IMG/VR virus record: IMGVR_UViG_3300044640_002813
Coordinates: 1 to 55,207 of that record
DNA: 55,207 nucleotides
Direction: 5' to 3' (one strand)
Origin: a virus
Lineage: Duplodnaviria > Caudoviricetes
The position numbers were made by a program, and so were the translations under genes. Every line of letters starts with the position of its first letter. Position 1 is the stretch's first letter. Shown piece by piece: positions 1-49,980 of this stretch. The notes below the pieces were generated by a model, which was given only the letters and a program-made list of their open reading frames with translations, ran no database searches and was not told the DNA's origin.

Positions 1-432
1 GCAGATCGATATGATCTACACGTTTACTATACCCCAAATGAATTTCAAGGCTGGTATGAGTCTCCACAATTTTCAGATTTTGACACTAGAGGATTAAGAT
101 ACTATTGGAAAGAACTTTCAGGCGGCAAACCAGTTGTGGTTTTAGTGCCAGGAACCGGAGAAAGATTCGATCATAAATCAGCTGAATTCATCGCATATGA
201 AGAAGTATTTCAAGATCTGATGAGTATTCCTGAATTTAGGGAAATCAATCGATTTGCTGAGGCCAGAGGAGGCAGTGCATCAGTTCCTAAAGAACTGACA
301 ATGGGGCTGATTGCAAAGGTCAAAGAAATGGGACTAGACAGCAGAATCCGGGATATCTTCGATAAATCAAAAGAGGATCCAGAATACATCAAGGCGATGG
401 TTAAGGAGTCCAGTCGAATGGGATTGATTTAA
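1..432 (+). CDS. Hypothetical protein, 5'-truncated by the window edge
   Basis: Frame is open from base 1 (ADRYDLHVYY...) through the ORF-track call 136..432. Ends ...SSRMGLI; its stop overlaps the stop of the convergent sigma gene (TTAA). Confidence 0.75.
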   Translation, partial: ADRYDLHVYYTPNEFQGWYESPQFSDFDTRGLRYYWKELSGGKPVVVLVPGTGERFDHKSAEFIAYEEVFQDLMSIPEFREINRFAEARGGSASVPKELTMGLIAKVKEMGLDSRIRDIFDKSKEDPEYIKAMVKESSRMGLI

Positions 433-1316
433 AGTTCTCTCCGAATTCTAGCCTGATTCATAATAATTTTCAGTTTTCGAATCGCTTTAGTATATCTTTG
501 TCTGATGGTCTCAGGGGTGAAATCTCCAAATTGATTAGCAATTCGAGTAAAGCTATGAGGCTCGTATCCAAACAGACCCAGTCGCATTGCGATTATCTGC
601 TTTTGAACCGGAGTCAGCTTATTGAGATATCTTTCTATCATTTGATCCGATGATCCGGTAATGACCAGGTGATCTGTACCTTCCGGGTCACCATTGATCG
701 TATTGATCGGACCCCAATCTCCTTCTATGTCTGAATCATTACCCCATCCGTCCATCGGAGTAGGAGCATGATTTGCAACCAGCGCCATCTTGATTCCTTC
801 AATTTTGGCATCAGGATCAACCGTCTCTAAATAGGCATCGAAGAGCTCATCAATAGTAGGATCCCTTTGTAAGTCTTGAGCCATTTTAGATTCTAGCTGA
901 TTGATCTTTGAAATAGTAGAAACCTGATTAGACGGCACTCGGATCTGTCTGGAATTATCAGTTAGGTATTTCAACATATTCTTTCTAATAAACCAAACTG
1001 CATAGGATATAAATTTAAAGCCAGTAGTCGGATCGAATCCTTCTGCCGCTTCAAGCAGACCCATGTTGCCTTCATTGATCAGGTCTTCCATCTTAGTACT
1101 GTCACGGCCGGCATACATCTTAGCTACCGAAATCACAAATCTCAGGTTGGAAGTAATCAGTCTCTCCTTGGCTAACAGGTCCCCTTCTCTAGCTAGAACA
1201 GCAAGTTCTGCTTCTTGAGTTGGAGTCAGGGCTTCATATCTAGATATCTCAGTCATGTATCGACTTAAACTGTCTGTTCTAACTGTGTATCTAGCTGAAA
1301 TTTTAAATTCTCTCAT
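429..1316 (-). CDS. Phage-encoded sigma-70 factor, RpoD/SigA-like (Bacteroidota type, no region 1.1)
   Basis: Region 1.2 SLSRYMTEI, region 2 LITSNLRFVISVAK / DLINEGNMGL / FDPTTGFKFISYAVWFIR, region 3 SRQIRVP, region 4 ETIRQRYTKAIRKL. N-terminus MREFKIS resembles Bacteroidota primary sigma (MRQLKIT). Confidence 0.93.
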   Translation of the reverse strand: MREFKISARYTVRTDSLSRYMTEISRYEALTPTQEAELAVLAREGDLLAKERLITSNLRFVISVAKMYAGRDSTKMEDLINEGNMGLLEAAEGFDPTTGFKFISYAVWFIRKNMLKYLTDNSRQIRVPSNQVSTISKINQLESKMAQDLQRDPTIDELFDAYLETVDPDAKIEGIKMALVANHAPTPMDGWGNDSDIEGDWGPINTINGDPEGTDHLVITGSSDQMIERYLNKLTPVQKQIIAMRLGLFGYEPHSFTRIANQFGDFTPETIRQRYTKAIRKLKIIMNQARIRREL

Positions 1317-2440: not shown

Positions 2441-2552
2441 AAATAAATAAAAAAAAGAATAACATATGTCTCACATTAAGAATTTTAAAGACTGGTTCCG
2501 AGTATATGAATCGGCAGGATTTAAGTACAAGTCAGGAATGGCAATTTTCGAA
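2441..2552 (+). repeat. Direct repeat copy 1 (promoter plus 29-codon leader); copy 2 at about 4740-4851
   Basis: Visible nucleotide alignment; 9 synonymous and 2 non-synonymous codon differences. Confidence 0.9.
2443..2449 (+). promoter_or_regulatory. Late-type promoter motif ATAAATA
   Basis: 16 nt before ATG 2466. Confidence 0.6.
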
Positions 2553-4097
2553 ACGACCCCCACTCCAAGCGATGGTTCAATAGAAGCAGATATAAAGGTT
2601 CAATTTGCTGCAGGAGCATATGGAGCAACTCAAGCTGAACAAGATCAGTTAATAGGTCAAATACGAACAAGTTTAACCCCATTAGTAGAGTTCATTAAAA
2701 ATCCTGCACCGGATTATTTTGGACACTTTATAAATATTGAAGTTGAAGCTAGTGCAGACGCAACTGGATTATCAGCGGGAGCACTCCAAAAAGCTGCTGC
2801 TCTAGGGATCACCGCACAAATGCAACCTTCTGAACAAAATACAATTTTATCAAATGCTAGAAAGGATACGTGTATCAAATTAATAAACAAAATATTAGTA
2901 GAAGAACTTGGCGTGACTGAAGAAGAATTAAAAACTAAAATTACTATATCTGGAAAAGCAACAGTTAGTCCTAACCTAAATGATCCAAGTGCAAGATTTG
3001 TAAAAGCTAGATTAAGTAAGGGAGCTCAATATTTGCCGCCGCCGCCGCCTGATAAGATAGAAGAAGACGTACTCAAATGTGGTTACGAAGAAACAAAGGA
3101 GGGAACCGAAGCTAAAAAATATCCATACATTGGATATGAAAAAAAGGTTAAAAGTTCTATGAGGACTGGTCAAAAAATGACTTTGTCATTTAATTCATAC
3201 AACTATCCAGATGCATTCTATATAAAATATGGAGACGTTGAAAAATTTAGCGGATTCATTGGAGCACAAAAAAAGGACGGTAGAGATTTTAATTCGGAGC
3301 TATCTAGCTATGGAGCAGAACTTAAAAAAGCAGTTGATGAGACTATTAAGAGACTCGGAGGAAAGATTGAATCAGATTTACAAACAGATTTTCAAGTAAC
3401 AGGCACACCTACTGAAATGACGAATGCTTTAAAAAAGAAAATAAAGGAGAGTACACTTGATCCTAAATATCATGAATGGCCTCTTATGATTGTAGGATAC
3501 TTAAATGATAGCGGTAATCGATCCGACGGAATTTTGGGGACCACTTGGGTTCAAAATCCTGGAGAAGCTATGGCTTTACCGCCAGATGAATATTTAATAG
3601 GCGCTAAATCACAAAACAGTTTAATGTTAAAAACTCTATTAAAAGAAGGGTTTATTTCTATTCCAGATGAAGGCAATTATAGTGATGCATTTCGGGAAAA
3701 ACTAGAGGGTACTGATTCTAATCCTACTGAAAATGATAAAAAATTAATAGAAGAAGAAGGATCAAAATGGAAAAAAGTGAAATGGACTATTGACAATGCT
3801 TCTAAATTTGCTGGAGGAGGAAGGGGCATAGACGGTTCAACAATAAAGCCTAGAGACATAACAAAGGAAAAAAACTACACGCCGTTAACCAAAGAAATAG
3901 TTTTGGAAATGATTAAGAATGGAAGTTTAGGGGAAGAAGTAAAGAATAGAAGAAACTTAACTCCAAATCCCGCAAATAAAAATGCACTGGATTTTAATTT
4001 TACCTTTGAAAAAGATTTTAGAGATGAATACGTAACAATTGTTGTATTTTCGCCTTTATCTGGAACCGAATTTAATATTAAAGCAACTTGTAAATAA
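2466..4097 (+). CDS. Putative virion cargo protein A1: conserved 29-aa leader plus OmpA-C-like domain
   Basis: 543 aa; leader MSHIKNFKDWFRVYESAGFKYKSGMAIFE shared with 4765..6561; OmpA-like pattern F.AG...NIEVEASAD...NTILSNAR...ARFVK; poly-Pro linker. Confidence 0.7.
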   Translation: MSHIKNFKDWFRVYESAGFKYKSGMAIFETTPTPSDGSIEADIKVQFAAGAYGATQAEQDQLIGQIRTSLTPLVEFIKNPAPDYFGHFINIEVEASADATGLSAGALQKAAALGITAQMQPSEQNTILSNARKDTCIKLINKILVEELGVTEEELKTKITISGKATVSPNLNDPSARFVKARLSKGAQYLPPPPPDKIEEDVLKCGYEETKEGTEAKKYPYIGYEKKVKSSMRTGQKMTLSFNSYNYPDAFYIKYGDVEKFSGFIGAQKKDGRDFNSELSSYGAELKKAVDETIKRLGGKIESDLQTDFQVTGTPTEMTNALKKKIKESTLDPKYHEWPLMIVGYLNDSGNRSDGILGTTWVQNPGEAMALPPDEYLIGAKSQNSLMLKTLLKEGFISIPDEGNYSDAFREKLEGTDSNPTENDKKLIEEEGSKWKKVKWTIDNASKFAGGGRGIDGSTIKPRDITKEKNYTPLTKEIVLEMIKNGSLGEEVKNRRNLTPNPANKNALDFNFTFEKDFRDEYVTIVVFSPLSGTEFNIKATCK

Positions 4098-4122: not shown

Positions 4123-4662
4123 TCAGTGCTCAAGAGATTCTGCACACTTGTATTTCATCGGTACATTTTTAACACTGATAATAAATATTTTATAGACAGT
4201 CTCCTCATTTTGTATTAAGATGTCGATATAAAAACCTACAAGATAAGGTTTATCAGCATTTATATTTTTACCAGACCACCATTCGGTAGATATTTTGCCA
4301 GGCGTTTCTGACATTCTTTCCTCTAATCGTTGAGTTAATAACGATTCAGGCTTATAATAACAAGATATAGCATTAGGTATAGATTGAGTAACTTGATAGG
4401 TATCGTATAATGCCCAATTATCTTCTAATTTTAAAACATTTAGAAAATTAGTATTTTCAACAGTTTCTTTAATTTTAAATATCTGTTGAGCCATTTGGTC
4501 AGCTTCAGTAGACGATCGTATTTCTCCTAACATCATACTTGATCTTTTTTTATTTAAGCTTAATAGAAAAGAATTCTTGACAGTTTCAGTTAATTTATTA
4601 TCTATTTGAGAATTGATACTTGATGCTACAACTAAAGTGATTAAAAGGATTAAAGATTTCAT
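4123..4662 (-). CDS. Secreted protein B1 (signal peptide), possibly CAP/SCP-like
   Basis: Start moved from 4713 to the ATG at 4662, giving the Sec-type signal MKSLILLITLVVASSINS-Q. LNKKRSSMMLGEI...ADQMAQ weakly resembles a CAP-domain N-terminus. Confidence 0.7.
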   Translation of the reverse strand: MKSLILLITLVVASSINSQIDNKLTETVKNSFLLSLNKKRSSMMLGEIRSSTEADQMAQQIFKIKETVENTNFLNVLKLEDNWALYDTYQVTQSIPNAISCYYKPESLLTQRLEERMSETPGKISTEWWSGKNINADKPYLVGFYIDILIQNEETVYKIFIISVKNVPMKYKCAESLEH

Positions 4663-4671
4663 CGTTTTCGG

Positions 4672-4689
4672 ATTTAATTGGTTATAATC
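4672..4689 (-). promoter_or_regulatory. Shared upstream element GATTATAACCAATTAAAT (copy 1)
   Basis: Exact 18-mer, 9 nt before the start of B1; identical copy at 7086-7103. Confidence 0.65.
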
Positions 4690-4740
4690 TAATTTACTCA
4701 ATTTTATCGACATTTTTAAAAAAAATCATTTCTTTTAAGA

Positions 4741-4747
4741 ATAAATA
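4741..4747 (+). promoter_or_regulatory. Late-type promoter motif ATAAATA
   Basis: 17 nt before ATG 4765. Confidence 0.6.
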
Positions 4748-4764
4748 ATAAAAAAGAATAACAA

Positions 4765-6561
4765 ATGTCACACATTAAAAACTTTAAAGACTGGTTCCGA
4801 GTGTATGAATCAGCAGGATTTAAGTATCAGCCTGGCATGGCAATATTTGAAGCGACAATTACCCCAGGGGCGCTTTATGCTGCTGATACTGCTATTGAAA
4901 ATTTGGAAGGGTTGTCAACTAAACTTGATAAAATGACTTCAGAAATGTCAACTGACTGGACCTCACTTATAAATGGATGGAAAAAATTAATTGCAAACAA
5001 AGCACCGGGTGACGGAAAGGCTGAGACAAGTAACGTTTACACAACATGGTTTGAGGGCTCCAAAGCCGGTAATCTCGACAAGGCACAGACAGAGTTCAGT
5101 GCATTCCTAGCAGACACCACCAAATATACAAAACCATCTTTTTCAATTGTGAAGAATGATTTTGTAATTAACAATGCAAAAGGAAGAAAGGTTCCGTTTA
5201 CTAACGGATCACTAACATGGTGGATCAATGCTGACAATTTACTCATGAGGTTTAATGCAACTAATATTTTAAATATGCTTGTATCGTTAAATGACCACTA
5301 TCCGACTGCAGCTTGGGCCAGCGGTAAAACAGTTGAACAGTTGGGATCAATGGCATGGGACAAAATAAAAGATGGAGGAGGCATAGGAAAATGGTATTGG
5401 CCTGATGCCGCAGTTGCCAAAATCGTCGCCCCTGCTATCCAAAGATTCTTATCCTGGAAAGATGCATTAGCGATAAGCTCAGGTTCTAAAGCATTGTCTG
5501 CTGATAGCTTAGGTGGAGGAATCAAGGCAGGAGATACGGTTTCAGACCCAAAAGGGATGGAAAAGGAGATTCTTGTTCAAAAATTTGGTTTTTATACTAT
5601 TGCTTCAGTGGAACAAGGAGCCGGAAATGAATACACCAAATTTGAGACAACCTCAGTTCAGGTTCCAGTCGGAGGAGGAAAAGGGGCAGTTGCAGTTAAA
5701 GACGATAAGCAATCTTTACTGGGATCATCTGGTTTATTTGCTCAAGGTTCTAAAACTCCAGTTCCAGCCAAAGCCGCTGGACAGCTTGAAGCCTTACAAA
5801 AGATATTAAGTCAGTATTCTAACATTACTTCTATTAAAGTTCAAGGATCCGCCTCATGGGAATGGACTAACGGTAACACAAGAGACGACGCTCAAAATCT
5901 GGCATTAGCTAAAATTAGAGCTCAATGGTTTATTGATCAACTTAATGTCGGAACAAACAAAGTTGCAACCATGTGGATGCCTACTGAAGTAGATAAAGTG
6001 GTAAATGGAGTAAAGCAGGTAGTAGGTGAAGGGGCCGTAGTTCAACCTACTAATGATGTAAAAACTGCTCCTGATTGGAGGGTAACCAACTTCTTTATAA
6101 CTGGAGATAAAGTAACAGAAAATACACTACCTGAAAAATGGATCACAGTGACTGAAACTGGAGATATTACATTAAAATATGATAAGGTTACAATCACCGA
6201 GCATATTTTAACGGTTTCTTTTACATCTCCAGGATTGATAACGTCTAAAGGATGGGGACAGGAGAAAGGTAAAAAAGATATAAAATCAGAGCTTAAACAG
6301 AGTACTAAATGGGATGACTTAAAGGCGGGACAGGAGATAGTTATAAACGATAAGTCAGACCCTCCAAAACCAGTCGGAGGTGGAGTCGATGGTAAACAGA
6401 TTTTCGTAGTAGGCGAAGGTACTGAAAAAAATACCTTAAAGGTTAAATTGGTAACTACAAAGGACGGTCAGAAATCAGAAAGAGAGATTGACAACGTAAT
6501 CAAAGATAGATATCTAAGAGAAGTAAAACCTAAACCTGTCGAAGGAGAAGATAACTTATAA
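4765..6561 (+). CDS. Putative virion cargo protein A2: conserved 29-aa leader plus OmpA-C-like domain
   Basis: 598 aa; leader 27/29 identical to 2466..4097; LFAQGS...ITSIKVQGSAS...NLALAKIRAQ...WRVTNF matches the OmpA-C pattern. Confidence 0.72.
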   Translation: MSHIKNFKDWFRVYESAGFKYQPGMAIFEATITPGALYAADTAIENLEGLSTKLDKMTSEMSTDWTSLINGWKKLIANKAPGDGKAETSNVYTTWFEGSKAGNLDKAQTEFSAFLADTTKYTKPSFSIVKNDFVINNAKGRKVPFTNGSLTWWINADNLLMRFNATNILNMLVSLNDHYPTAAWASGKTVEQLGSMAWDKIKDGGGIGKWYWPDAAVAKIVAPAIQRFLSWKDALAISSGSKALSADSLGGGIKAGDTVSDPKGMEKEILVQKFGFYTIASVEQGAGNEYTKFETTSVQVPVGGGKGAVAVKDDKQSLLGSSGLFAQGSKTPVPAKAAGQLEALQKILSQYSNITSIKVQGSASWEWTNGNTRDDAQNLALAKIRAQWFIDQLNVGTNKVATMWMPTEVDKVVNGVKQVVGEGAVVQPTNDVKTAPDWRVTNFFITGDKVTENTLPEKWITVTETGDITLKYDKVTITEHILTVSFTSPGLITSKGWGQEKGKKDIKSELKQSTKWDDLKAGQEIVINDKSDPPKPVGGGVDGKQIFVVGEGTEKNTLKVKLVTTKDGQKSEREIDNVIKDRYLREVKPKPVEGEDNL

Positions 6562-6626: not shown

Positions 6627-7076
6627 CTAATAATCAATTGATATTGCCATATAACTTCTTCCTTCAACATCTCCAAATACAATAGAATATTTTGTAAATT
6701 CAAAATCTTTAATCTGTATTTCTTCATTTGTTATATTCTCCTTTACTCTAGAAATCAAATGAGATAAAGGAAGATCATAGATAGATACTACATCGTTTGG
6801 AACAGAATTTACTGATCTAAAATGAACTTTACTATCGTCATTTAAAAAGGACTCTCCTTTAATTTTTTTAATAGCATAACCATGACATTCAGGATTAAAA
6901 GATTCAGTTAATTCTACGTTTCCAAGCTCTGCCTTGATCAATGAATCAATTGAATACTTGATACGTTCAATTTTTGCAGACTTGTCTTTAAATTCAGTAG
7001 AATCTAATCCGTTAGAGAATGCTAAGTTAAATACTAATGATCCTCCGATTACTAAGGCTAAAATTAACTTTTTCAT
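6627..7076 (-). CDS. Secreted protein B2 (signal peptide)
   Basis: Start moved from 7115 to the ATG at 7076, giving MKKLILALVIGGSLVFNLAFS; upstream 18-mer identical to that of B1. Confidence 0.7.
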   Translation of the reverse strand: MKKLILALVIGGSLVFNLAFSNGLDSTEFKDKSAKIERIKYSIDSLIKAELGNVELTESFNPECHGYAIKKIKGESFLNDDSKVHFRSVNSVPNDVVSIYDLPLSHLISRVKENITNEEIQIKDFEFTKYSIVFGDVEGRSYMAISIDY

Positions 7077-7085
7077 GGCTTTTAA

Positions 7086-7103
7086 ATTTAATTGGTTATA
7101 ATC
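7086..7103 (-). promoter_or_regulatory. Shared upstream element GATTATAACCAATTAAAT (copy 2)
   Basis: Exact 18-mer, 9 nt before the start of B2. Confidence 0.65.
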
Positions 7104-7136
7104 AATACTACTCATATTATCTGTAAATTTAAAAAA

Positions 7137-7143
7137 ATAAATA
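7137..7143 (+). promoter_or_regulatory. Late-type promoter motif ATAAATA
   Basis: 18 nt before ATG 7162. Confidence 0.55.
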
Positions 7144-7161
7144 ATAAGAAATAACTTAGAA

Positions 7162-7509
7162 ATGAAAAGAATTAAAAAACTATTCTCTGATCTGTTGATG
7201 GAGAAAGGATTCTATTCACAAGGTAGAATTTATTTGTTCATATCTGTGTTGGCCTATTACATTACCCTAGGCATCCTGACATGCACTGGAATGAGCAAGA
7301 AACATGCTGATATTGACATCAATAATTTTAAAATGATTGTTGATGGGCTACAATACGCAATGGTCCTATTTGCAGGTTATGTGTTTGGTGGTAAATTTGT
7401 AGATGTTCTAAAAGAGGCTAAATATTTAAAGTCTAATGACTCTGCTAATGCTACTGCATCTAATCAGATGCAGGGTTCAACTCCAGATCCTAATTTAGGA
7501 GCTAATTAA
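7162..7509 (+). CDS. Small two-TM membrane protein, holin-like
   Basis: 115 aa; hydrophobic segments IYLFISVLAYYITLGILT and IVDGLQYAMVLFAGYVFGG; late-type motif upstream. Holin role is inferred. Confidence 0.55.
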   Translation: MKRIKKLFSDLLMEKGFYSQGRIYLFISVLAYYITLGILTCTGMSKKHADIDINNFKMIVDGLQYAMVLFAGYVFGGKFVDVLKEAKYLKSNDSANATASNQMQGSTPDPNLGAN

Positions 7510-15935: not shown

Positions 15936-16316
15936 TTACCAGTTTTTTCTCCATCTCCAAGATTCGTTAGCTGGCTCTTCACCTTCAGCTGGCTCTTCGC
16001 CTTCTTCACCTTCAGCTGGCTCTTCGCCTTCTTCACCTTCAGCTGGCTCTTCTTCAGCTCCACCACCTTCTAATTCTTCAACTCTAGCTGTCAAATCATC
16101 AAGCATAGCTTTTAAATCTTCTAGTGTAACTTCTTCTCCTTCTCCTTCAGCTCCTTCTTCGCCTTCTTCTGGCATTTCATCAGTTAAAGCAGCTCCACCT
16201 TCTTCATCCTCTGGATTAGCTCCATAGTATCCGAAGTCTTCGCCTTCTGCATATTCTCCTGACATTGATTCATTCAATCTTGCTCGCATGAATCCTGAAA
16301 AATTTTTTACTTTCAT
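15936..16316 (-). CDS. Highly acidic small protein (prohead core or internal-protein-like)
   Basis: 126 aa; leader MKVKNFSGFMRARLNE; short coiled coil; EEPAEGEEG repeats; own promoter motif and terminator. Confidence 0.75.
   Translation of the reverse strand: MKVKNFSGFMRARLNESMSGEYAEGEDFGYYGANPEDEEGGAALTDEMPEEGEEGAEGEGEEVTLEDLKAMLDDLTARVEELEGGGAEEEPAEGEEGEEPAEGEEGEEPAEGEEPANESWRWRKNW
15969..16052 (-). repeat. 27-bp coding tandem repeat (EEPAEGEEG)
   Basis: TTCACCTTCAGCTGGCTCTTCGCCTTC, about three copies. Confidence 0.9.
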
Positions 16317-17042: not shown

Positions 17043-17069
17043 ATTATACTCAAGACCTGAAAAAGGTTT
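17043..17069 (-). promoter_or_regulatory. Bipartite promoter motif AAAC-N16-GTATAAT
   Basis: Upstream of 16519..17025. Confidence 0.62.
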
Positions 17070-19206
17070 AAGCGTATTCTTCTGAAAAATTAGGTCTAAT
17101 TCCCTGAGCTGCAGATATTCCCCAGGTAGGATCAGTTCCCCATCCTCCATTTGCTCTAACGAAATTATAGATCGCATCATCTATAGTTTCAAATCCGTTA
17201 GGATCTATTCCTTTCTGTTTAAGTTGAGGAACTAACATTGCAACTGCAATCTTAGCAGCTATCACTGGATTATTAGCAAGATCGGGATTAGAGACAAGAT
17301 CAGCTCCGACCACCTTACCATACTGAGCATATAGGCTCTTAAAGGTGATGCCATTAAATCCTCTACCTCTATATTTCCAACCGTCTCCTTTTTGAGTATT
17401 ACCGGTATTTGGCCATAAATAAGGAGTAGCCTCCTTTCCATAAACCGCGTCCCAGAATTCCTCTTCATTATTTTTAAGAGCGGTCAGTTCAGCGTCATCA
17501 TATTTTGCAACTCTGGCTCCAAAAATAGATCGGATTCGGCTATTAGCTGTTGTTGCATAGCTTATTTCTCTCTGAGGTATAAATCCACTCTCTTTTCCAA
17601 TAACACAAAGAAGTCCAATTAAAGACTTGGTATTAGTGATTCCCGCCTTTTTAGCTACTTCTTCTATGATCCTGATATTTTTAGCCTGCTCACCCGTATA
17701 TGTGTGCTTGATTCGACTAGGTCCAGTTATTTCTATTTGGATATCACCTTGATCGACCTTTCCAGAATCCGCTATTTCTTCATCAGGGAGAGAAAATAAT
17801 CTTAACATTATTTTACCTATTTCAGTGTCTGTAATGTCCTTTTCCTCTTTTTGAATAACCTGAATAATTCTATCATCTTTTTTTATAAATTGGCCTGTTG
17901 GTTTTTTATCTTTATCGTATACATCATAAATATTTTTATCCATAAATTTACGCTTAACTATAAGCATTCTTCTATTTTCTTTATCATATATTTTAATAAA
18001 ATTTCTTCTCTTTTTAGAAAAACTGGTTCCTGAATAGAGTTCCCTTTCAGTATCGTCGTCTAGAGCTCCAGTCTCAGGCAGACCTTTATCTTTTTGAAAT
18101 TTCATTAAAGTTGCTTTAGTTTCTCCATAAAAGAGACCATCAATTCCATATACTGGAAGCTCGTATCCTTTATCAACTAGGGCCTGTTGCATTCGTTTAA
18201 CGTCTTCTGATTCTGAACCATATTTTAAAGTTCCTCCTTCTGAAGATGATGAAGAAATATCTCTACCTGCCCCTGATAGATATGGAAGAGGATCAACATG
18301 GTCCCCATTGAGAGATTTTCTGATTTCAAAGTGTAGATGTGCCCCTCTAGAATTTCCAGCCCCTCCTTCTACTCCTTGATCTCCGCCTGACTTTCCTATG
18401 ATCTGACCCTTTTTGACGCTATCACCTGCCTGGACATCCATTTGAGAAAGATGAGCGTATAAAGAATAGAGGGTTTCACCGCCTACATCATGTCGAATTA
18501 ATATCACGTTTCCATATCCATACTTATCTGACATATCGGCACGTTCAACGGTTCCGTCTGCAATTGATACAACACCTGCCCCAGTTGGAATACCTAGATC
18601 TATTCCTTTATGCATTCTTCCCCACCTAGGTCCAAATTTTGAAGTTAAAGTGGCTTCAGATGCTAGTGGATAATTAAATTTTCCTTCTCCAGAATCTGAT
18701 TCTTCAGGTTCAGTTTTAGGTGCTCCTAATATATTTCCAGATTCATCAACATAGTTTTTTAAATCTTTATTCTTAAGTCCAATATGTACATGTTCATACC
18801 ACGTTCTGCCGTCTGATGGCCGACCGATATGACCGATGAGTTCACCTTTCTTTAGTTCATATCCACTTTTAATTGAAGGTTCTAAACTTCCAAGATGAGT
18901 GTAGAACACCTTTTCATTGAATTCTGATGCCGTTACCGTGACATGCCAACCATATACTTTCTGATTAGATGAGTTAGATAATTTTACTGATTTAACTTTA
19001 CCGTCAAATATCGAATATACTGGAGTTCCTGCTTTTGCCATGACATCCCATGCATTATCAGATTCCCAATTACCAAATGCCCTTTTACCATGTGCATCAG
19101 GTCCGCCACCCCATGTGAATTTTTTGTTTCCAACCAAGTGGCTAGATGAGGTTGCAGATTCGTTAATTGCTTTATGATATTTCCAAGGATTTATGAAATC
19201 GTGCAT
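17068..19206 (-). CDS. Multidomain peptidoglycan hydrolase: M23 + M23 + PG-binding + GH19-like lysozyme
   Basis: M23 motifs YTHL...HVH and HKGID...YAHL...HLHFE; PG-binding VKRMQQAL...IDGLFYGET..LMKFQKDKGL; GH19-like KESGF...GDGWKYRGRGF; leader ...KAINE. Confidence 0.9.
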   Translation of the reverse strand: MHDFINPWKYHKAINESATSSSHLVGNKKFTWGGGPDAHGKRAFGNWESDNAWDVMAKAGTPVYSIFDGKVKSVKLSNSSNQKVYGWHVTVTASEFNEKVFYTHLGSLEPSIKSGYELKKGELIGHIGRPSDGRTWYEHVHIGLKNKDLKNYVDESGNILGAPKTEPEESDSGEGKFNYPLASEATLTSKFGPRWGRMHKGIDLGIPTGAGVVSIADGTVERADMSDKYGYGNVILIRHDVGGETLYSLYAHLSQMDVQAGDSVKKGQIIGKSGGDQGVEGGAGNSRGAHLHFEIRKSLNGDHVDPLPYLSGAGRDISSSSSEGGTLKYGSESEDVKRMQQALVDKGYELPVYGIDGLFYGETKATLMKFQKDKGLPETGALDDDTERELYSGTSFSKKRRNFIKIYDKENRRMLIVKRKFMDKNIYDVYDKDKKPTGQFIKKDDRIIQVIQKEEKDITDTEIGKIMLRLFSLPDEEIADSGKVDQGDIQIEITGPSRIKHTYTGEQAKNIRIIEEVAKKAGITNTKSLIGLLCVIGKESGFIPQREISYATTANSRIRSIFGARVAKYDDAELTALKNNEEEFWDAVYGKEATPYLWPNTGNTQKGDGWKYRGRGFNGITFKSLYAQYGKVVGADLVSNPDLANNPVIAAKIAVAMLVPQLKQKGIDPNGFETIDDAIYNFVRANGGWGTDPTWGISAAQGIRPNFSEEYA

Positions 19207-19225
19207 CTATTTGATTAATTTTTAT

Positions 19226-19232
19226 TATTTAT
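19226..19232 (-). promoter_or_regulatory. Late-type promoter motif ATAAATA
   Basis: 19 nt before ATG 19206. Confidence 0.6.
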
Positions 19233-19712
19233 TTAGGAAAGGCGGTCTAGAATTATCATTTGAGATCTGTGTATCATTCCATAAGCATCTCGGATTGGAA
19301 CAAATCCTGCCCAGTCTACTTCTTCTAATTGTAATTGAGATTTAGGAACTTTAAGATCTATAAGATCTATTTCTGAAAGATCTTGAATTAGCATATTAAA
19401 ATAAATCAGCTGGCCTGTCAATTTACCTGAATCATCATACTTATATGACTCCATAGGACTGAGATCTAATTGATTTGAAATCTGATCAGGTCTAATAATG
19501 ATTCCAGTTTCCTCCCTCATTTCTCTGATTGCGGCTTCAAGAGGATCTTCACCCTCTTCTATCTTTCCTTTAGGGATGCTTAAATTGTTTTTATGCCAGC
19601 TTGAATTAGTAGAGTGGACCAATAGGATCAAGTCAAGATACTTAATGGCGATCCCAGCGGCTACTCTAGGCTTATTCATAGATTCATTAAAGGATTTAAA
19701 ATTTAAGATCAT
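19233..19712 (-). CDS. Nudix hydrolase
   Basis: Perfect Nudix box G-KIEEG-E-DPLEAAI-REMREETGI; leader MILNFKSFNE. Confidence 0.93.
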   Translation of the reverse strand: MILNFKSFNESMNKPRVAAGIAIKYLDLILLVHSTNSSWHKNNLSIPKGKIEEGEDPLEAAIREMREETGIIIRPDQISNQLDLSPMESYKYDDSGKLTGQLIYFNMLIQDLSEIDLIDLKVPKSQLQLEEVDWAGFVPIRDAYGMIHRSQMIILDRLS

Positions 19713-19887
19713 TATTCTTATTTGCTAAATATTTTGCTCTATTTAATTGTTCTCTTCTTTTTTGAGATTTAGAAATAAAAGTTTTTCTGTTTCTCAATTC
19801 ATCGTGTATTTTATACTTATCCATCCTTTGACGATAAGTTTTTAAAACTGATTCTATTTTTTTATTTTTAACCTCTACTATTATCAT
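19696..19887 (-). CDS. rpsU: Phage-encoded 30S ribosomal protein bS21
   Basis: 63 aa, basic; MIIVEVK..KIESVLK.YRQR...ELRNRKTFISKSQKRREQLNRAKY fits the Bacteroidota/phage bS21 pattern (EL.R..F.KPS..RR). Confidence 0.85.
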   Translation of the reverse strand: MIIVEVKNKKIESVLKTYRQRMDKYKIHDELRNRKTFISKSQKRREQLNRAKYLANKNNDLKF

Positions 19888-20738
19888 TTTTTAAATAATT
19901 TTGAATAGTCCATAGAATACTTACTCTTGATTAATTTAGAATCAAAGTATTTCCTTTTATAATAATCTGAAAGATCTTCATCTAATATTCTATTTTTAAC
20001 CCAAGGTGGGAGTTTGGAATTATAATGATCTTGATATATGTTATTATATACTGTATATGCCTGATGAGGATTTAAATTTAAATTTTTATTTAAATCCGAA
20101 AGATATATTTTTCCATCTAATGATTCGATTAAATCTATATTAAATACATCTAATTTATATGATTCATATAGATCATTGACAATGTCTTTTATTTGATTCG
20201 AATGTTTAAATGAATTAAGATCCATATCAAATGACATGTTGTTAATCTTTTCTTCTCCGCATATGGGATAATTTTTAAATGCGACTATTTTAAAACGAGT
20301 CCGGGGCTGAGGAGATTCAGTAAACATTTTATACCGAGTCTCAGCTTGCCTGAGTTTATGCAACGTTTTATATAAATCTGATTTATTACCATTTGATGCA
20401 GTAACTGGAAACTTTAATAATTTAACATTTTGAATATTATCAACCGCGTTAGGAATCCAGTTTTTATTTTTAAAATCAGAAAAGACTTCATTTAAAGATG
20501 GAGTAATAGCTGAATTATAAGTGCTAGAATTGGACTCATTGATTCGGATTGAATCAAAACTAAAATTATCACATAAAATTATTGGAATATCAGATTCTAG
20601 AAGATCGTATTTATTTTCTATGTGTTTAAAATATTCATGGCTCGGTTTATTCTGGCAAGCCAGGCCTATTTTTTTAAAGAATGCTATTTTATAGTCAGTG
20701 TGTCTTTTTACATAGTCATCAAATTTATGAAATTTCAT
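19884..20738 (-). CDS. RimK-like ATP-grasp protein, apparently degenerate
   Basis: WIP.AV...LKFPV; FKIVAFK; LDVFNIDLIESLDGKIYLSDLN resembles RimK D..GVD.....G..vlEVN, but the K-P..G..G.GV loop and E-x-N are altered. Confidence 0.55.
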   Translation of the reverse strand: MKFHKFDDYVKRHTDYKIAFFKKIGLACQNKPSHEYFKHIENKYDLLESDIPIILCDNFSFDSIRINESNSSTYNSAITPSLNEVFSDFKNKNWIPNAVDNIQNVKLLKFPVTASNGNKSDLYKTLHKLRQAETRYKMFTESPQPRTRFKIVAFKNYPICGEEKINNMSFDMDLNSFKHSNQIKDIVNDLYESYKLDVFNIDLIESLDGKIYLSDLNKNLNLNPHQAYTVYNNIYQDHYNSKLPPWVKNRILDEDLSDYYKRKYFDSKLIKSKYSMDYSKLFKK

Positions 20739-20759
20739 AATAACTTTATTGATTTTTAT

Positions 20760-20779
20760 TATTTATTTTTAGATAAATA
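20760..20779. promoter_or_regulatory. Back-to-back divergent late-type promoters
   Basis: ATAAATA at 20760-20766 (minus, RimK-like/bS21/Nudix operon) and 20773-20779 (plus). Confidence 0.6.
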
Positions 20780-20795
20780 AAATAAAATACTGATA

Positions 20796-25577: not shown

Positions 25578-26576
25578 TCAACTAAAAAGTCTCTTTAGCT
25601 CCTGCCTCTGTCTTCGAATCAGATCAGGAGAATAGGCAGCAATCAATCTTTTAATGTCATTCTGACTGGAAACATAGAGAAGATCTCTTAAAACCGGATC
25701 CTGTATTATTTCTCGATTAGGATCGTATTCGATTTGAATTGCAGCAAGACAATTAGAAGCAAGAGTCTCATACAATCGATAGGTTTTAACGTTATCTAGA
25801 TGCTCTTCATCTCCAGTTATTAATGAAACTTTAACCAGATCTAAGGTCTTCATTAATTCTCCATGCTCTAGTTTTTTCATAAACTCAGCCTGAACTCGAT
25901 CTGACTTATATCCAATTAGTAGATTTTGAGTATCTGTTGGAAAATATTTTCTGATTTGATTTTCTCTAAACGATCCTCTCTTATCTCCATAATATACAAG
26001 GTCCCATTTTTTCTCTACATCTTCTTTAATTAGGTCAAGATCTACACTCTCAAAACGGTGTTTAAAGATGTAAGTGAACCAGTCGACGTGAAGATGATTT
26101 TGAGGCTGCCAACCTAGATATTTAGATACATCTTTTCCTGAAAAAAGATAGGTGGCAGTTTGGATTATGGAATCCCATTTATCTACAGATTGAGTGCATA
26201 ACTGAAACCTATCAGATATGATCTTAGCATAATTGATTGGAGGTATTCTTGGATCATTAACTAACATATAGATCTTTCCTCGGTAATTAGCAAGATCGTT
26301 GCATATTTTTTCGCAATGTTCTCCCATTACTCCTCCAAAAAAATTGGCGGTGCTTAATTGAAGAATCACGGCTCCGTATTCTGAAAAATCAGTATCAGTA
26401 TAATTGATATAAAAATCCAGGTCTTTGGTATTTCTATTTTTGTATCCGACAACATCAACTTGAGCCCCTTTCTCTTCCATCATTTTTTTAATGAACATGG
26501 CTTCTAACCCTCTATGATTCTTATCATTGTAGGTCAAGTTAGCAAATACTGAAGTGATCGCTATTCTCTGTTTCAT
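25578..26576 (-). CDS. bgt: DNA beta-glucosyltransferase, T4 BGT-like
   Basis: Colinear with T4 BGT motifs: NFFGG, KIY..NDPR (catalytic Asp position), KK.D..Y.G..R...RE, LITGD....DN..T.RLYETLAS, LYV. Confidence 0.88.
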   Translation of the reverse strand: MKQRIAITSVFANLTYNDKNHRGLEAMFIKKMMEEKGAQVDVVGYKNRNTKDLDFYINYTDTDFSEYGAVILQLSTANFFGGVMGEHCEKICNDLANYRGKIYMLVNDPRIPPINYAKIISDRFQLCTQSVDKWDSIIQTATYLFSGKDVSKYLGWQPQNHLHVDWFTYIFKHRFESVDLDLIKEDVEKKWDLVYYGDKRGSFRENQIRKYFPTDTQNLLIGYKSDRVQAEFMKKLEHGELMKTLDLVKVSLITGDEEHLDNVKTYRLYETLASNCLAAIQIEYDPNREIIQDPVLRDLLYVSSQNDIKRLIAAYSPDLIRRQRQELKRLFS

Positions 26577-33836: not shown

Positions 33837-33858
33837 GAATTGATCTTATTTTTATTAT

Positions 33859-34071
33859 TTATCTCAATTTCAAATGGCTAGGAAGATTGACAGAAGGGGC
33901 AGGCTGATTTGGATTATCAGCCATATTTAGAATATTATCATTCTCCTTTTCTATATCTTTATTGATTATATTTAAGAGAAGGGAGTACTCCATGTATTCC
34001 ATTTCATATAGGGTATCAAAGCTTTGATTAAGCTTCACTGCCAAGCGAGCATTTAGCTCAAATAAGTTCAT
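33859..34071 (-). CDS. Baseplate/tail assembly chaperone, T4 gp51-like; possibly expressed as a frameshift extension of the upstream gene
   Basis: SFDTLYEMEYMEYSLLLNII resembles the S..EI..M...E......L pattern of gp51-like chaperones; frame is open back to 34161. Confidence 0.6.
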   Translation of the reverse strand: MNLFELNARLAVKLNQSFDTLYEMEYMEYSLLLNIINKDIEKENDNILNMADNPNQPAPSVNLPSHLKLR

Positions 34072-37683: not shown

Positions 37684-38144
37684 CTTAAAATCAAGTATAA
37701 AGAGACTAGTGACACCACTAAAATTGATGAAAAATATCCAATTGAGTATTTAAATTTAGACTTTTTATATTTTTTAAAGTCAAATTCAATCTGGACAACG
37801 TAGCCATAATAATCAGTGGTCTGAACACGGTCGTAATCTGCCTTTATCACGTCTAGTATTCCTTCTTTTTGAAAGAAATCGGTGAATCTTCTCATTTTTT
37901 CGCTTATAAAGTTGATTTCCACTTGATTTTGAGACTCTTCACTGTATAATAAAAGTTCAGGATTAAGATCTATTCCCAGGTATAGTTTGCCGGAGTCGTG
38001 GCTTATTCCCATCTCTTTTAGTTTGTTGGACTCTTCAAGTTCTCTTAGGATGCCTTTGTACTTATTATAATATTTAAGTTCAGAAATATCTCCTTTTAAG
38101 GATTTCCAAACTCTATTCGGATATACATAGTCTAATATTTTCAT
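37680..38144 (-). CDS. Tail-anchored membrane protein coupled to the ECF sigma gene
   Basis: 154 aa; C-terminal TM YSIGYFSSILVVSLVSLYLIL; ATGA overlap with the sigma gene. Confidence 0.7.
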   Translation of the reverse strand: MKILDYVYPNRVWKSLKGDISELKYYNKYKGILRELEESNKLKEMGISHDSGKLYLGIDLNPELLLYSEESQNQVEINFISEKMRRFTDFFQKEGILDVIKADYDRVQTTDYYGYVVQIEFDFKKYKKSKFKYSIGYFSSILVVSLVSLYLILR

Positions 38145-38773
38145 AGGTCAAATATATGTTTTAATGATTCTTTAAAATGAGGATTTTTCTCTAAAACTTT
38201 TTCTTTAATTTCAATCCTAGCCTTTCTAAGCTTGGTTTTTACAGTATTTTCGTTTATATCGTATTTTATAGCAATAGACTTTACTTTTTCTCGATTTATC
38301 ATCTTATCGATCGCTATGTTCTTAAGTAGGGCATCCTCCAATCCATAAATCTCAGATATGGTTTTATCGAATACGTCTTGAAATTCAAGTTCTAATTCTC
38401 TACCGGTTACTGCCCTGTCCGCCGGATCATAGTCGCAATAGATCGACTCAACTGAGATGATTGGAGATCTTTTCTTTTGGAAAAGATAGAAGAGTGTTTC
38501 ATTTCGGGCAATGGCATAGATCCAAGTTGTAAATCTTCCTCTTTCAAAATCGAATTTAGATATATTTTTAAATATCTTCTTAAGTGTCCATTGAAGAGCC
38601 TCATCTGTATCTTCAGAATTTTTACAAAACTTCCAGATGAAGAATTTTAATTTCGGATAAATAAGCTCGGCAAGCTCGTTTTTTTCCCTTTCGGTGATTA
38701 GATTGTTTTCAAATTTAGATGCGATTTCATGTATTCGATCATTGATCAAGCGATTAGTTGTTTCAAATCCCAT
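38141..38773 (-). CDS. ECF-type sigma-70 factor
   Basis: Region 2 DTDEALQWTLKKIFKNISKFDFERGRFTTWIYAIARN; region 4 IAIKYDINENTVKTKLRKAR; 210 aa. Confidence 0.9.
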   Translation of the reverse strand: MGFETTNRLINDRIHEIASKFENNLITEREKNELAELIYPKLKFFIWKFCKNSEDTDEALQWTLKKIFKNISKFDFERGRFTTWIYAIARNETLFYLFQKKRSPIISVESIYCDYDPADRAVTGRELELEFQDVFDKTISEIYGLEDALLKNIAIDKMINREKVKSIAIKYDINENTVKTKLRKARIEIKEKVLEKNPHFKESLKHIFDL

Positions 38774-38774
38774 T

Positions 38775-39083
38775 TTAAGCTAATTGGTTTTTTTTATTTT
38801 TTATGTCATTTATAATGTTGACGCATTCTTGGCAAAGTTCATAGTATTCAATTTCTTCGAAGAAAGCAATACATTTATTTAAGCTGTCTATAAAACGATC
38901 CCGGCTTAAATTAATATTGTAATCCTTAGAGATGGTAGATATTTTTACCACTTTTACTTCCTTAATTTCAGAATTAAGGTAATTTTCTTTGATTGAAGTT
39001 AGAATATTCTCATAGATCTCTTTTCTATACGATTCAAATATCTCCTCTATTTCAAAGTCTCCGTTTAAATGTATGTTTTTCAT
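38775..39083 (-). CDS. Hypothetical protein with C-terminal helical hairpin
   Basis: 102 aa; FFEEIEYYELCQEC. Confidence 0.7.
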   Translation of the reverse strand: MKNIHLNGDFEIEEIFESYRKEIYENILTSIKENYLNSEIKEVKVVKISTISKDYNINLSRDRFIDSLNKCIAFFEEIEYYELCQECVNIINDIKNKKNQLA

Positions 39084-43748: not shown

Positions 43749-43766
43749 TTAATTGATAATTTATAT

Positions 43767-43821
43767 TATTTATACCGATTTAATTTGATTTAGATTATGC
43801 TGATCAGTTCTTTAATAAATA
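43767..43821. promoter_or_regulatory. Divergent late-type promoters
   Basis: Exact T4 late consensus TATAAATA at 43767-43774 (minus, baseplate/terminase operon) and ATAAATA at 43815-43821 (plus). Confidence 0.65.
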
Positions 43822-47924: not shown

Positions 47925-48117
47925 GATAAACGGACTGGCTTGTTTATCCATATAGATTTATTTTTGTTCATTCTATGAGATAAATAAAAATAAACTATTC
48001 AATGCCTCTTAATTTTCCAATTCCTTCTTTTGTCGGTGAGATTTACACTGGACCAAACGGAAATCAATGGGAATGGACCGGCGCAATCTGGAAGATCTTA
48101 ACCCCTACTATTGCAGG
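47925..48117 (+). repeat. Intergenic plus 5'-coding direct repeat; second copy at about 49904-50097
   Basis: About 77 nt of near-identical non-coding sequence followed by the MPLNFP...IWK.LTP.IAGP coding module. Confidence 0.9.
47980..47986 (+). promoter_or_regulatory. Late-type promoter motif ATAAATA
   Basis: 15 nt before ATG 48002. Confidence 0.6.
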
Positions 48118-48850
48118 ACCTACAGGTCCTATTGGCTCAACTGGACCATATCCATTCTATTATCAAAATACTGGCCCGTCAGGACCAACGCAAGTAGGAT
48201 CTTTATGGTATAATTCAGACACTGGAGAATTAGCAGTATACATCGATGACGGAAACTCAGAGCAATGGGTCACTCCGAATGGATATGTCGGTGCAACTGG
48301 ACCAACAGGTAACACTGGACCAACAGGTAACACTGGACCTACGGGAGACACTGGACCTACAGGAGACACTGGACCTACGGGAATTCCAGGTACTGCATCT
48401 AACACTGGTGCAACCGGACCTATCGGAGACACTGGACCTATCGGAGACACTGGACCTATCGGAGACACTGGACCTATCGGAGACACAGGACCTGCTGCAC
48501 CGAAAGTAATACAATTAGCAGCAAGCGATGAGATTACTGCATTAACAGCTGGAACTAACAAAATAACTTTTAGGATGCCGTATGCGATGACGCTATCAGA
48601 AGTTAGATCATCGTTAACAACAGCTCAATCGAGTGGTTCTATATTTACTATCGACATCAACCTAAATGGTTCTTCGGTCCTAGGAACACTTCTTACAATT
48701 GATAATACCGAAAAAACTTCAGTAACCGCTACCACGCCAGCAACAATAACAACAAGTTCACTGACGGATGACGGGGAAATAACTATAGACATAGATCAAA
48801 TTGGAAGCGGAACTGCCGCCGGTCTGAAAATAACTTTAATTGGTACATAA
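48002..48850 (+). CDS. Short collagen fibre protein (MPLNFP family)
   Basis: N-terminal [25 protein letters not shown]; collagen tract; C-terminal beta-sandwich ...[21 protein letters not shown]. Confidence 0.82.
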
Positions 48851-49958: not shown

Positions 49959-49965
49959 ATAAATA
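49959..49965 (+). promoter_or_regulatory. Late-type promoter motif ATAAATA
   Basis: 15 nt before ATG 49981. Confidence 0.6.
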
Positions 49966-49980
49966 AAAATAAACTACTCA

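Follow-up and report, generated by a model that had tools for sequence, protein, structure and literature searches.

What joins an ATP-grasp-like protein, the ribosomal protein bS21 and a Nudix hydrolase in one short stretch of phage DNA? The question is raised by three overlapping minus-strand genes (Table 1) of the caudoviricete virus record IMGVR_UViG_3300044640_002813, whose whole analysed stretch of 55,207 bases is called the window in what follows. A preliminary description had taken this trio for a possible module that remodels the platform of the 30S ribosomal subunit, headed by a RimK-like protein that has lost its ATP-binding residues. The identities of the three genes are practically certain, and the reading preferred here, at a probability of about 0.5, is that of a late, coupled cassette from which a dead ligase and the Nudix hydrolase would be packaged into the phage head, with bS21 being made for the producing cell.

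Gene identities, coupling and synteny

The middle gene encodes a bS21, as first described, its product exceeding the curated cut-offs of both Pfam (PF01165, 27.6 bits against 27) and NCBIfam (TIGR00030, 32.1 bits against 28.95). The third gene encodes a Nudix hydrolase (PF00293, 51.3 bits against a cut-off of 21.1, E 1.6e-13), and it is indeed intact, with a Nudix box (G49...E55...R63 E64...E67 E68...G70 I71) that is invariant in 4/4 orthologues. The first gene, for a protein of 284 amino acids (aa) with an ATP-grasp fold, shares the tetranucleotide ATGA (19884-19887) between its stop codon and the start of the bS21 gene, and the bS21 and Nudix genes overlap by 17 nucleotides (nt; 19696-19712). 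A promoter-like motif stands ahead of the first gene; no copy of it was found within the trio, nor any terminator-like site on the minus strand there. In its degenerate form, ATAAATAAWAWWAA, the motif occurs 17 times in the window against 0.07 expected (100 shuffles), and in 16 of these the distance from the end of the copy to the following ATG start is 8-15 nt (read by eye from the gene list). It may reasonably be called late-type because copies precede the starts of structural genes, among them baseplate-wedge and tail-fibre-like genes. The description of three coupled, overlapping genes behind one late-type motif thus stands, and the trio quite probably forms a single operon.

The spacing of the motif implies very short mRNA leaders. 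Two divergent copies occupy the 57-bp gap 20739-20795, and further sites include 1367-1380, 4741-4754, 33849-33862, 43760-43773 and 49959-49972. A 33-kb contig of metagenome run X12, of approximately fivefold higher depth, matches the window only at 20741-20788, and does so at two of its own places; the promoter-like motif therefore appears to be common to another, more abundant phage in the same water.

Loci related to the trio were drawn from viral and metagenome contigs, with duplicates merged (L103 with L001, L108 with L003) and with L107 and L109, both of which end at the ATP-grasp gene, set aside. A Nudix orthologue follows the ATP-grasp gene in all 15 contigs that reach far enough. Of 18 distinct contigs, 9 have bS21 in the slot between the two genes (the window, L004, L101, L102, L106, L110, L111, L112 and L113, in the last of which it was detected by a six-frame check); the slot is empty in L001, L100, L104, L114, L115 and L116. 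In the remaining three it is taken by unrelated small open reading frames (ORFs) or a run-on frame: L003 has two unrelated ORFs of 60 and 120 aa (6873-7435), L105 has a leader-bearing ORF of 135 aa (3367-3774), and in L002 the ATP-grasp frame continues for about 60 residues to the end of the contig (6847-7032). No bS21 was found anywhere on the records of L001, L002 and L003; all of the related records are fragments, on which absences are weak evidence.

Contigs with bS21 have an overlap of 17-23 nt between its end and the Nudix start; in those without it, the Nudix start adjoins the ATP-grasp stop or overlaps with it (by ATGA in L001 and L115). In a tree of the ATP-grasp proteins, the sub-clade of the window has bS21 in 6/6 rows of known state; in the other sub-clade seven rows, each either without bS21 or of unknown state, form the sister group of L004, which has it (supports 89/90, 90/90, 88/94); a deeper branch, at about 33-35% identity, has it in 2/5 contigs. 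The simplest reading of these sequences is an old trio from which bS21 would have been lost repeatedly. Because the pair is kept in 15/15 contigs and bS21 recurs in 9/18 with the same coupling, the trio appears to be old and bS21 dispensable: the ATP-grasp/Nudix pair is apparently the conserved core, which can do without bS21. The synteny check proposed in the preliminary description therefore gives a divided answer, since the trio recurs but the pair persists without bS21 in the other nine contigs.

The ATP-grasp protein, its lost catalysis and the ribosome

The 284-aa protein consists of a leader (residues ~1-18), an ATP-grasp fold (~19-240) and a C-terminal helical extension (245-269), a long helix that is specific to its family. 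It has no match in Pfam, PHROG or NCBIfam, and its family profile finds only chance-level matches (E above 1) among the sequences of solved structures. A word-index search of 5.8 billion clusters returned nine proteins at E ≤ 0.001, including the window's own (100% identity), none of them named, and a profile search of 1.84 billion representatives gave 88 matches to the family. Ten distant matches were scanned: eight fit Pfam ATP-grasp-type models at E ≤ 1e-5 and seven of the ten reach the cut-off of a model (for P0039 the only such model is Dala_Dala_lig_C, 26.6 bits against 24), whereas P0051 has only a weak Pfam match (E 0.0074) and P0030 has none. The AlphaFold2 model built from a 58-sequence alignment has a predicted local distance difference test score (pLDDT) of 92.3 and a predicted template-modelling score of 0.88, compared with a pLDDT of 64.6 for an earlier model from 9 sequences. 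All 50 rows returned by VIA-align are ATP-grasp proteins (Z 9.1-12.3, covering approximately residues 19-240), and Foldseek gave 441 matches at E ≤ 0.001, with PurK 3ax6 at the top (E 1.3e-8) and every listed row an ATP-grasp-superfamily enzyme. The fold supposed in the preliminary description was thus recovered by structural search.

The distant relatives include an active-looking sister family of 30 proteins (300-345 aa), marked by an invariant linker lysine, the string F-P-I-I-A-K-P-x-x-G-H-S-G-x-G-I, E-F-R, an invariant Asp and E-x-N-S-x-x-G. Profile comparison by hhalign joins it to the 28-member family of the window at a probability of 100 (E 2.3e-39, 283 columns). In the joint alignment the structural residues P76, P144 and Y287 of the sister are kept in 28/28 members of the window family. 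Of the other positions, K114 is kept in 3/28, K148 in 2/28, E186 in 0/28, R188 in 3/28, R202 in 3/28, D258 in 5/28, E271 in 2/28, N273 in 8/28 and G277 in 0/28, and the S-G-x-G-I loop is deleted in 27/28. The window protein itself has L82 in place of K114, S115 in place of K148, R148 in place of E186 and K150 in place of R188, and its loop is deleted; it retains only D202 and D215-x-N217, positions that vary across the 28 members. The reported loss of ATP-binding residues is therefore confirmed and in fact extends further, with both lysines, the glycine-rich loop and most other catalytic residues gone. It is very probable, as judged from these alignments, that the protein is catalytically dead and descends from the active-looking phage ATP-grasp family, and because its catalytic residues are lost it would have to be read as a binder or scaffold. 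When the profile of the window family was run against large related records, four of them (175-429 kb) gave one matching place each and a fifth (200 kb) gave none; in the three records that were cross-checked, this single place is the active-type gene.

ATP-grasp peptide ligases turn up sporadically in large phages, and host proteins, the translation apparatus among them, have been suggested as the targets that they modify (Burroughs et al. 2015, PMC4431377; Iyer et al. 2021, PMC7824862). By definition the R2K clade lacks the linker lysine and the classical loop, and two of the distant relatives found here (P0037 and P0048) match Pfam R2K_2 above its cut-off. Membership of the window's family in this clade was rejected: unlike R2K proteins, the active sister retains K114 in 30/30 members together with a classical G-H-S-G-x-G loop. 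The window's protein differs from R2K and other jumbo-phage ligases in being a predicted non-enzyme, and a literature search found no paper joining pseudoenzyme, ATP-grasp and phage.

RimK is the poly-glutamyl ligase of bS6. Its structure 4iwx is the top row of VIA-align (Z 12.3, root-mean-square deviation 3.6 Å, 215 residues aligned), but it is tied within 1 Z with ArgX, ITPK4, PsnB, ITPK1, LysX/ArgX and synapsin. Like RimK and the LysX/ArgX peptide ligases, the 284-aa protein has a three-domain ATP-grasp fold; unlike them, it has lost both ATP-binding lysines and the glycine-rich loop, and it carries an N-terminal leader and the family-specific C-terminal extension. It matches neither of the RimK models (TIGR00768, PF08443), and even the active relative P0035, which has the RimK family as its best NCBIfam match, scores 35.2 bits against a cut-off of 143.4. 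Given the structural tie with ArgX, PsnB, ITPK and synapsin, no specific kinship with RimK is seen, so that 'RimK-like' describes the leading structural match and not a family.

These results bear directly on the proposal of a 30S-platform module, in which the dead RimK-like protein would bind bS6 or compete with the host ligase, phage bS21 would replace that of the host, and the Nudix enzyme would process mRNA 5' ends, the three jointly re-tuning initiation. Besides the top structural rank of RimK, the recurrence of bS21 in the same slot and with the same coupling across two deep branches (~33-47% ATP-grasp identity) speaks in its favour, as does the ribosome of Flavobacterium johnsoniae, in which bS21, bS18 and bS6 jointly hold the anti-Shine-Dalgarno sequence; there Tyr54 of bS21 stacks on A1534 and the anti-Shine-Dalgarno tail turns into the bS21/bS18/bS6 groove (PMC7797042). 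The best solved match of the window's bS21 is this very protein (7jil_z, E 5.6e-5), its Tyr53 aligning with the Bacteroidetes-signature Tyr54; among the other bS21 proteins of the slot the position is Tyr in L004, L101, L106 and L111 and His in L110 (by eye). On the other side stand the persistence of the ATP-grasp/Nudix pair without bS21, the near-equal ranking of several unrelated ATP-grasp enzymes, the missing match to any RimK model, and a Nudix domain of generic type: none of the NCBIfam equivalogs, RppH and NudC included, reaches its cut-off (the best is NudE, 36.1 bits against 169).

The phages with an active-type ligase supply evidence of both kinds. This gene was found at 80 viral loci, and bS21 was searched for in the records of 78 of them (L038 and L076 were left out), 16 of which have a bS21 above the cut-off. 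Of these, 14 have it on the strand of the ligase gene at a distance of 3.6-5.8 kb, upstream of that gene in 6 and downstream in 8, which makes at least two gene orders; in the remaining two it is approximately 62 kb away. All 12 records that were fetched (cassette records L086-L097; G008, G015, G016, G026, G029, G030, G037, G052, G059, G068, G076 and G080) have bS21 in a cassette of its own, in which a DnaJ-domain protein and a small protein (~85 aa) come first, then bS21 and a paralogue of the small protein, and 7-11 genes, including exonuclease-, RNase HII- and PhoH-like genes (by sequence motifs), part this cassette from the ligase. The proximity of ligase and bS21 may therefore be an inherited gene order. 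A functional tie between them is kept alive by the two gene orders together with the single operon in the window's branch. A search of the window for DnaJ or the small proteins of the cassette gave only a weak match of 31-36 residues to the ORF 38775-39083. Taken as a whole, the 30S-platform module must be called unlikely; the fold, the lost catalysis and the coupling on which the preliminary interpretation was built have held, and its RimK assignment and ribosome remodelling are unproven.

A different use of the strict pairing would make the dead ATP-grasp protein a regulatory or substrate-presenting subunit of the Nudix enzyme, the two acting as a counter-defence or nucleotide-clearing enzyme. 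The pair is kept in all 15 informative contigs, and the abutting or overlapping of its genes where bS21 is missing would suit such a complex; yeast offers a loose parallel in its ATP-grasp protein Pby1, which is associated with the Nudix decapping enzyme Dcp2. The C-terminal domain of Pby1 (6y3p, with an entry title that states its interaction with the decapping enzyme) is among the structural matches (Z 10.1), but merely at rank 36 of 50 and undistinguished from other ATP-grasp proteins. Dcp2-type Nudix domains likewise occur among the solved matches of the Nudix protein, which are a mixture with ADP-ribose pyrophosphatases (E 1.3e-9), Ap4A hydrolases and MutT, and the ADP-ribose pyrophosphatases and Ap4A hydrolases match at least as well. 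Gene pairing alone is weak evidence of binding, and a prediction of the complex (ATP-grasp residues 36-284 with Nudix residues 11-159) gave a score of 0.00 (mark 0.32), which is evidence neither way. This two-protein enzyme is considered very improbable.

N-terminal leaders and the case for packaging

What favours the packaged cassette is a class of short N-terminal leaders. A pattern composed of [FWY]xx[FWY], up to 16 residues and then [ILVFMY][NTY]E, all within the first 32 residues, fits the N-termini of 11 of the 54 window genes compared with 3 of 460 internal windows, and shuffled sequences gave a mean of 0.5 and a maximum of 4 matches in 1000. Ten of the 11 genes lie between 1391 and 23552. 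A stricter, T4-like pattern (Met, 1-8 residues, aromatic-x-x-aromatic-hydrophobic-x-Glu) fits 124/1055 genes of 84 related loci against 56/4676 internal windows, typical leaders there being MKHIKLFEQFINE and MKYLKLFEQFISE, and the active ligases are also leader-bearing. By eye, leaders were recognised on the Nudix protein (MILNFKSFNE) and on the 712-aa hydrolase encoded next to it (...KAINE). All four Nudix orthologues carry the leader; their predicted cut falls between a Glu and a Ser, and the linker behind it varies in length. Two of the window's leader-bearing proteins are of the peptidoglycan-hydrolysing or -binding kind and have no export signal, which fits delivery by the virion. The leader-like peptides noticed earlier on the two proteins flanking bS21 are thus real and extend to many other genes; what had been missed is their likeliest meaning, namely capsid targeting with proteolytic processing.

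The block 1391-25502, counting both strands, contains at least 10 genes with a leader (e.g., MSHIKNFKDWFRVYE, MKRYLKGFNQYSQINE and MKVKNFSGFMRARLNE). Most of their products belong to no known family, and that of 15936-16316 is strongly acidic.

The model for such a tag comes from phage T4, where residues 1-10 of internal protein III form its capsid-targeting sequence (CTS): residues 4 and 7 serve targeting, residues 8 and 10 serve processing by gp21, and an Asp as residue 10 stops the cutting and not the packaging (PMC9026906). T-even phages load diverse proteins by means of this tag (PMC3012670). As in the T4 internal proteins and Alt, a short N-terminal tag is found here on otherwise unrelated proteins, with two key positions three apart and then hydrophobic-x-Glu, and the T4-type terminase of the window and the S77 (gp21-type) prohead protease present in 3 of 5 related records searched are further likenesses; leader-bearing genes adjoin the protease gene in two of those three records. 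The tag differs from that of T4 in being often longer (10-26 residues) and in having usually Asn, Tyr or Thr at P2; its candidate cargo includes a Nudix hydrolase, a dead ligase and peptidoglycan hydrolases, and the other structural genes of these phages are not T4-related (most have no PHROG match). Giant phages such as phiKZ, 201phi2-1 and SPN3US provide a second comparison, being large phages that cut N-terminal propeptides from many head proteins after Glu, and the preference of SPN3US for Ser at P1' (PMC10052503) parallels the Glu-Ser of the four Nudix orthologues. Unlike the leaders described here, the propeptides of phiKZ-type phages are mostly long and have the motif Ser/Ala/Gly-x-Glu; no sequence kinship to the head ejection proteins of these three phages was found, and a literature search found no paper with these leader strings. 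By analogy with T4, we place at roughly even odds the proposition that the leader is a capsid-targeting signal by which proteins would be loaded into the head.

Several points weigh against the packaged cassette. Both leader patterns are post hoc, composed with the data already seen, and the window pattern misses the Nudix protein, the 712-aa hydrolase and the ATP-grasp protein, so that exactly these three were judged by eye; the leader of the ATP-grasp protein (MKFHKFDDY...) has the aromatics F3, F6 and Y9 and no Glu before residue 35. The S77 protease has 0 matches in the window, itself a fragment rated 22% complete, and 2 of the 5 related records likewise gave none. In phages with the active ligase, genes for leader-bearing proteins sit among replication-type genes, and (G)ATATATA(A), a promoter word different from the motif of the window, stands upstream of 63/123 leader genes compared with 48/861 others (L006-L085); this link shows co-regulation of the leader genes and not their timing, and the leader may mark a co-regulated class. 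By the strict pattern, leader and promoter motif are only weakly associated in the window (Fisher p 0.065). The antiquity of the trio and its conserved overlaps of 17-23 nt argue that bS21 is more than a casual passenger, and packaging, cleavage and expression in this phage are deduced purely from its DNA.

Some of these points would equally suit an expression cassette and nothing more, in which the promoter is common because late timing suits each gene, nothing is packaged, and the leader is another N-terminal feature (such as a tag for chaperones or assembly, or a side effect of A/U-rich initiation regions), with the dead ATP-grasp protein being cytoplasmic or structural. The leader codons are very A/T-rich in a phage without Shine-Dalgarno sites, which makes selection on the 5' coding region plausible, and the placement of the relatives' leader genes and the missing protease agree with it. 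Against this, highly expressed structural genes behind the same motif (baseplate wedge, tail-fibre-like) have no leader, the feature is a spaced amino-acid motif ending in Glu whose frequency at N-termini exceeds that in internal windows 10-18 times, orthologues of 40-50% identity retain it, and it is borne by the peptidoglycan hydrolases that lack export signals. The expression cassette without packaging is therefore regarded as rather unlikely.

Under the preferred reading of a late cassette with packaged products, one late transcript would begin just after the motif at 20753-20766. Judging by the overlaps, ribosomes that end the ATP-grasp gene would restart on bS21 at the ATGA, and those that end bS21 would restart on the Nudix gene within the 17-nt overlap. 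The leaders would draw the dead ligase and the Nudix protein into proheads, where a T4 gp21-type (S77) protease would trim the leader after Glu wherever a site exists, in the Nudix protein probably after Glu10. Since its residues 1-18 contain no Glu, the ATP-grasp protein of the window, if packaged, would stay uncut. Together with the DNA, the hydrolase and further tagged proteins, this cargo would then pass into the next host cell. There, in the first moments of infection, the Nudix enzyme would act on a nucleotide-diphosphate substrate, and the dead ligase would serve as a binding or scaffolding protein and not as an enzyme. The untagged bS21 would act in the producing cell, most likely by replacing the host bS21 on Bacteroidota-type ribosomes, a replacement that would favour phage mRNAs without Shine-Dalgarno sequences and with A-rich leaders.

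This role of bS21 can be set beside the freshwater Bacteroidetes phages described by Chen et al. (2022; PMC9723584), in which phage bS21 is expressed late and adjoins structural genes. As in the window, these are large lake-water phages with a small bS21 gene among late or structural genes; their bS21 has an aromatic residue at the Tyr54 position and was likewise proposed to substitute for that of the host, and the authors also raise its possible encapsidation. In those phages bS21 is encoded by the reverse strand, between two hypothetical families, near terminase, portal, protease and capsid genes, whereas in the window it is co-oriented and translationally coupled between the dead ATP-grasp and Nudix genes. 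The words 'Nudix' and 'ATP-grasp' occur 0 times in the main text of that paper.

The source phage, its other features and their meaning

The window belongs to a large phage, as had been supposed. Its ORFs run off both ends, no terminal repeat and no tRNA gene were found in it, and its completeness is rated at 22% (CheckV-type rating), in line with ratings of 8-22% for four related records of 19-56 kb. From these ratings the source genome has probably about 250 kb, and the window is probably a ~22% fragment of such a phage from lake water. Its DNA is present in lake-water metagenome runs, and in two lake-water runs not marked as possible sources contigs span both junctions of the trio with 0 differences. 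The window encodes a T4-type large terminase, a baseplate-wedge protein and tail-fibre-like proteins; the terminase is nearest (28-36% identity) to those of 460-640-kb uncultured phages, Sphingomonas phage PAU, Tenacibaculum phage PTm1 and Lak phages. Shine-Dalgarno cores precede only 1 of the 54 window genes, and the 20-nt stretches ahead of start codons have 55% A and 85% A+T. This scarcity, together with the bS21 match to F. johnsoniae and Tyr53, suggests that the host is probably a member of the Bacteroidota.

Searches of a phage collection with nucleotide and protein sequences gave no match for the operon or for the 284-aa protein, and the bS21 matched a single record (LR745206, 47% identity). 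A 550-aa neighbouring protein had no match, and a leader-bearing protein of 1028 aa matched only two huge uncultured phages without annotation. The immediate neighbours of the trio are conserved: homologues of the 712-aa hydrolase come after the Nudix gene in L001, L003 and L004, and homologues of the divergently encoded 365-aa protein were found in L001-L004 (Table 1).

Table 1. The trio, its promoter-like motif copies and its immediate neighbours, in window coordinates.
Feature	Position	Strand	Basis or remark
ATP-grasp-fold protein, predicted pseudoenzyme, 284 aa	19884..20738	-	Structure search, profile-profile linkage, residue loss
Ribosomal protein bS21, 63 aa, without leader	19696..19887	-	Above Pfam and NCBIfam cut-offs
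Nudix hydrolase, 159 aa, intact Nudix box, leader MILNFKSFNE	19233..19712	-	PF00293
Late-type promoter-like motif ATAAATAATAAAAA (sense strand)	20753..20766	-	14 nt upstream of the ATP-grasp start
Next motif copy	19219..19232	-	Adjoins the stop codon of the Nudix gene (19233-19235); precedes the cell-wall hydrolase gene (start 19206) by 12 nt
Divergent motif copy	20773..20786	+	Serves the 365-aa gene
Peptidoglycan hydrolase, 712 aa, leader-bearing	17068..19206	-	Two M23 stretches, peptidoglycan-binding domain, GH19-like domain
Leader-bearing protein (MGKTYNSWKSVNE...), 365 aa	20796..21893	+	No known family; conserved divergent neighbour

Elsewhere in the window, two sigma-70-like proteins are candidate readers of the phage's own promoter motifs, one with regions 1.2, 2 and 4 (429-1316, minus strand) and one with region 2 only (38141-38773, minus strand). 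The product of 25578-26576 (minus strand) has an N-terminal domain like that of T4 beta-glucosyltransferase (PF09198, 33.4 bits against a cut-off of 27), which hints at sugar-modified DNA. Two paralogous gene pairs on the plus strand have near-identical upstream regions: in the pair 2466-4097 / 4765-6561 the N-terminal 20 residues are identical, and in the pair 48002-48850 / 49981-53721 the first 30 residues differ at 4. Two paralogous small proteins (4123-4713 and 6627-7115, both on the minus strand) have a common DYNQLN...MK motif followed by a hydrophobic, signal-peptide-like stretch, and their genes alternate with leader-bearing genes of the opposite strand.

That phages carry bS21 in a late cluster was known before; the new elements are the pseudo-ligase, its conserved Nudix partner and the widespread targeting-like leader. 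The working partners of phage bS21 were not known, and this locus offers candidates in the form of a defined and recurrent gene partnership with a dead ATP-grasp protein and a Nudix hydrolase. It is also a clear case of an enzyme family becoming a pseudoenzyme within phage genomes. A bolder proposal, and a quite unlikely one, is that a lineage of large Bacteroidota phages ties ATP-grasp proteins to their own bS21, in one branch as an active ligase less than 6 kb away from it and in another as a dead, substrate-binding derivative that shares an operon with bS21 and the Nudix gene. In this second branch the dead ligase, as a binder of the ribosome platform, and the Nudix enzyme, as an RNA or nucleotide pyrophosphatase, would be delivered from the capsid by way of the T4-like leader and would re-tune host ribosomes from the first minute of infection, and the newly made bS21 would complete the takeover late. 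If the leader is misread here, the locus would still be a useful but ordinary addition to the contexts of phage bS21. It does supply evidence, at the level of sequence, that an N-terminal tag is widespread in large Bacteroidota phages, and if this tag is a capsid-targeting signal, it would show at a glance which proteins uncultured phages inject and would offer, like the T4 tag, a handle for packaging foreign proteins.

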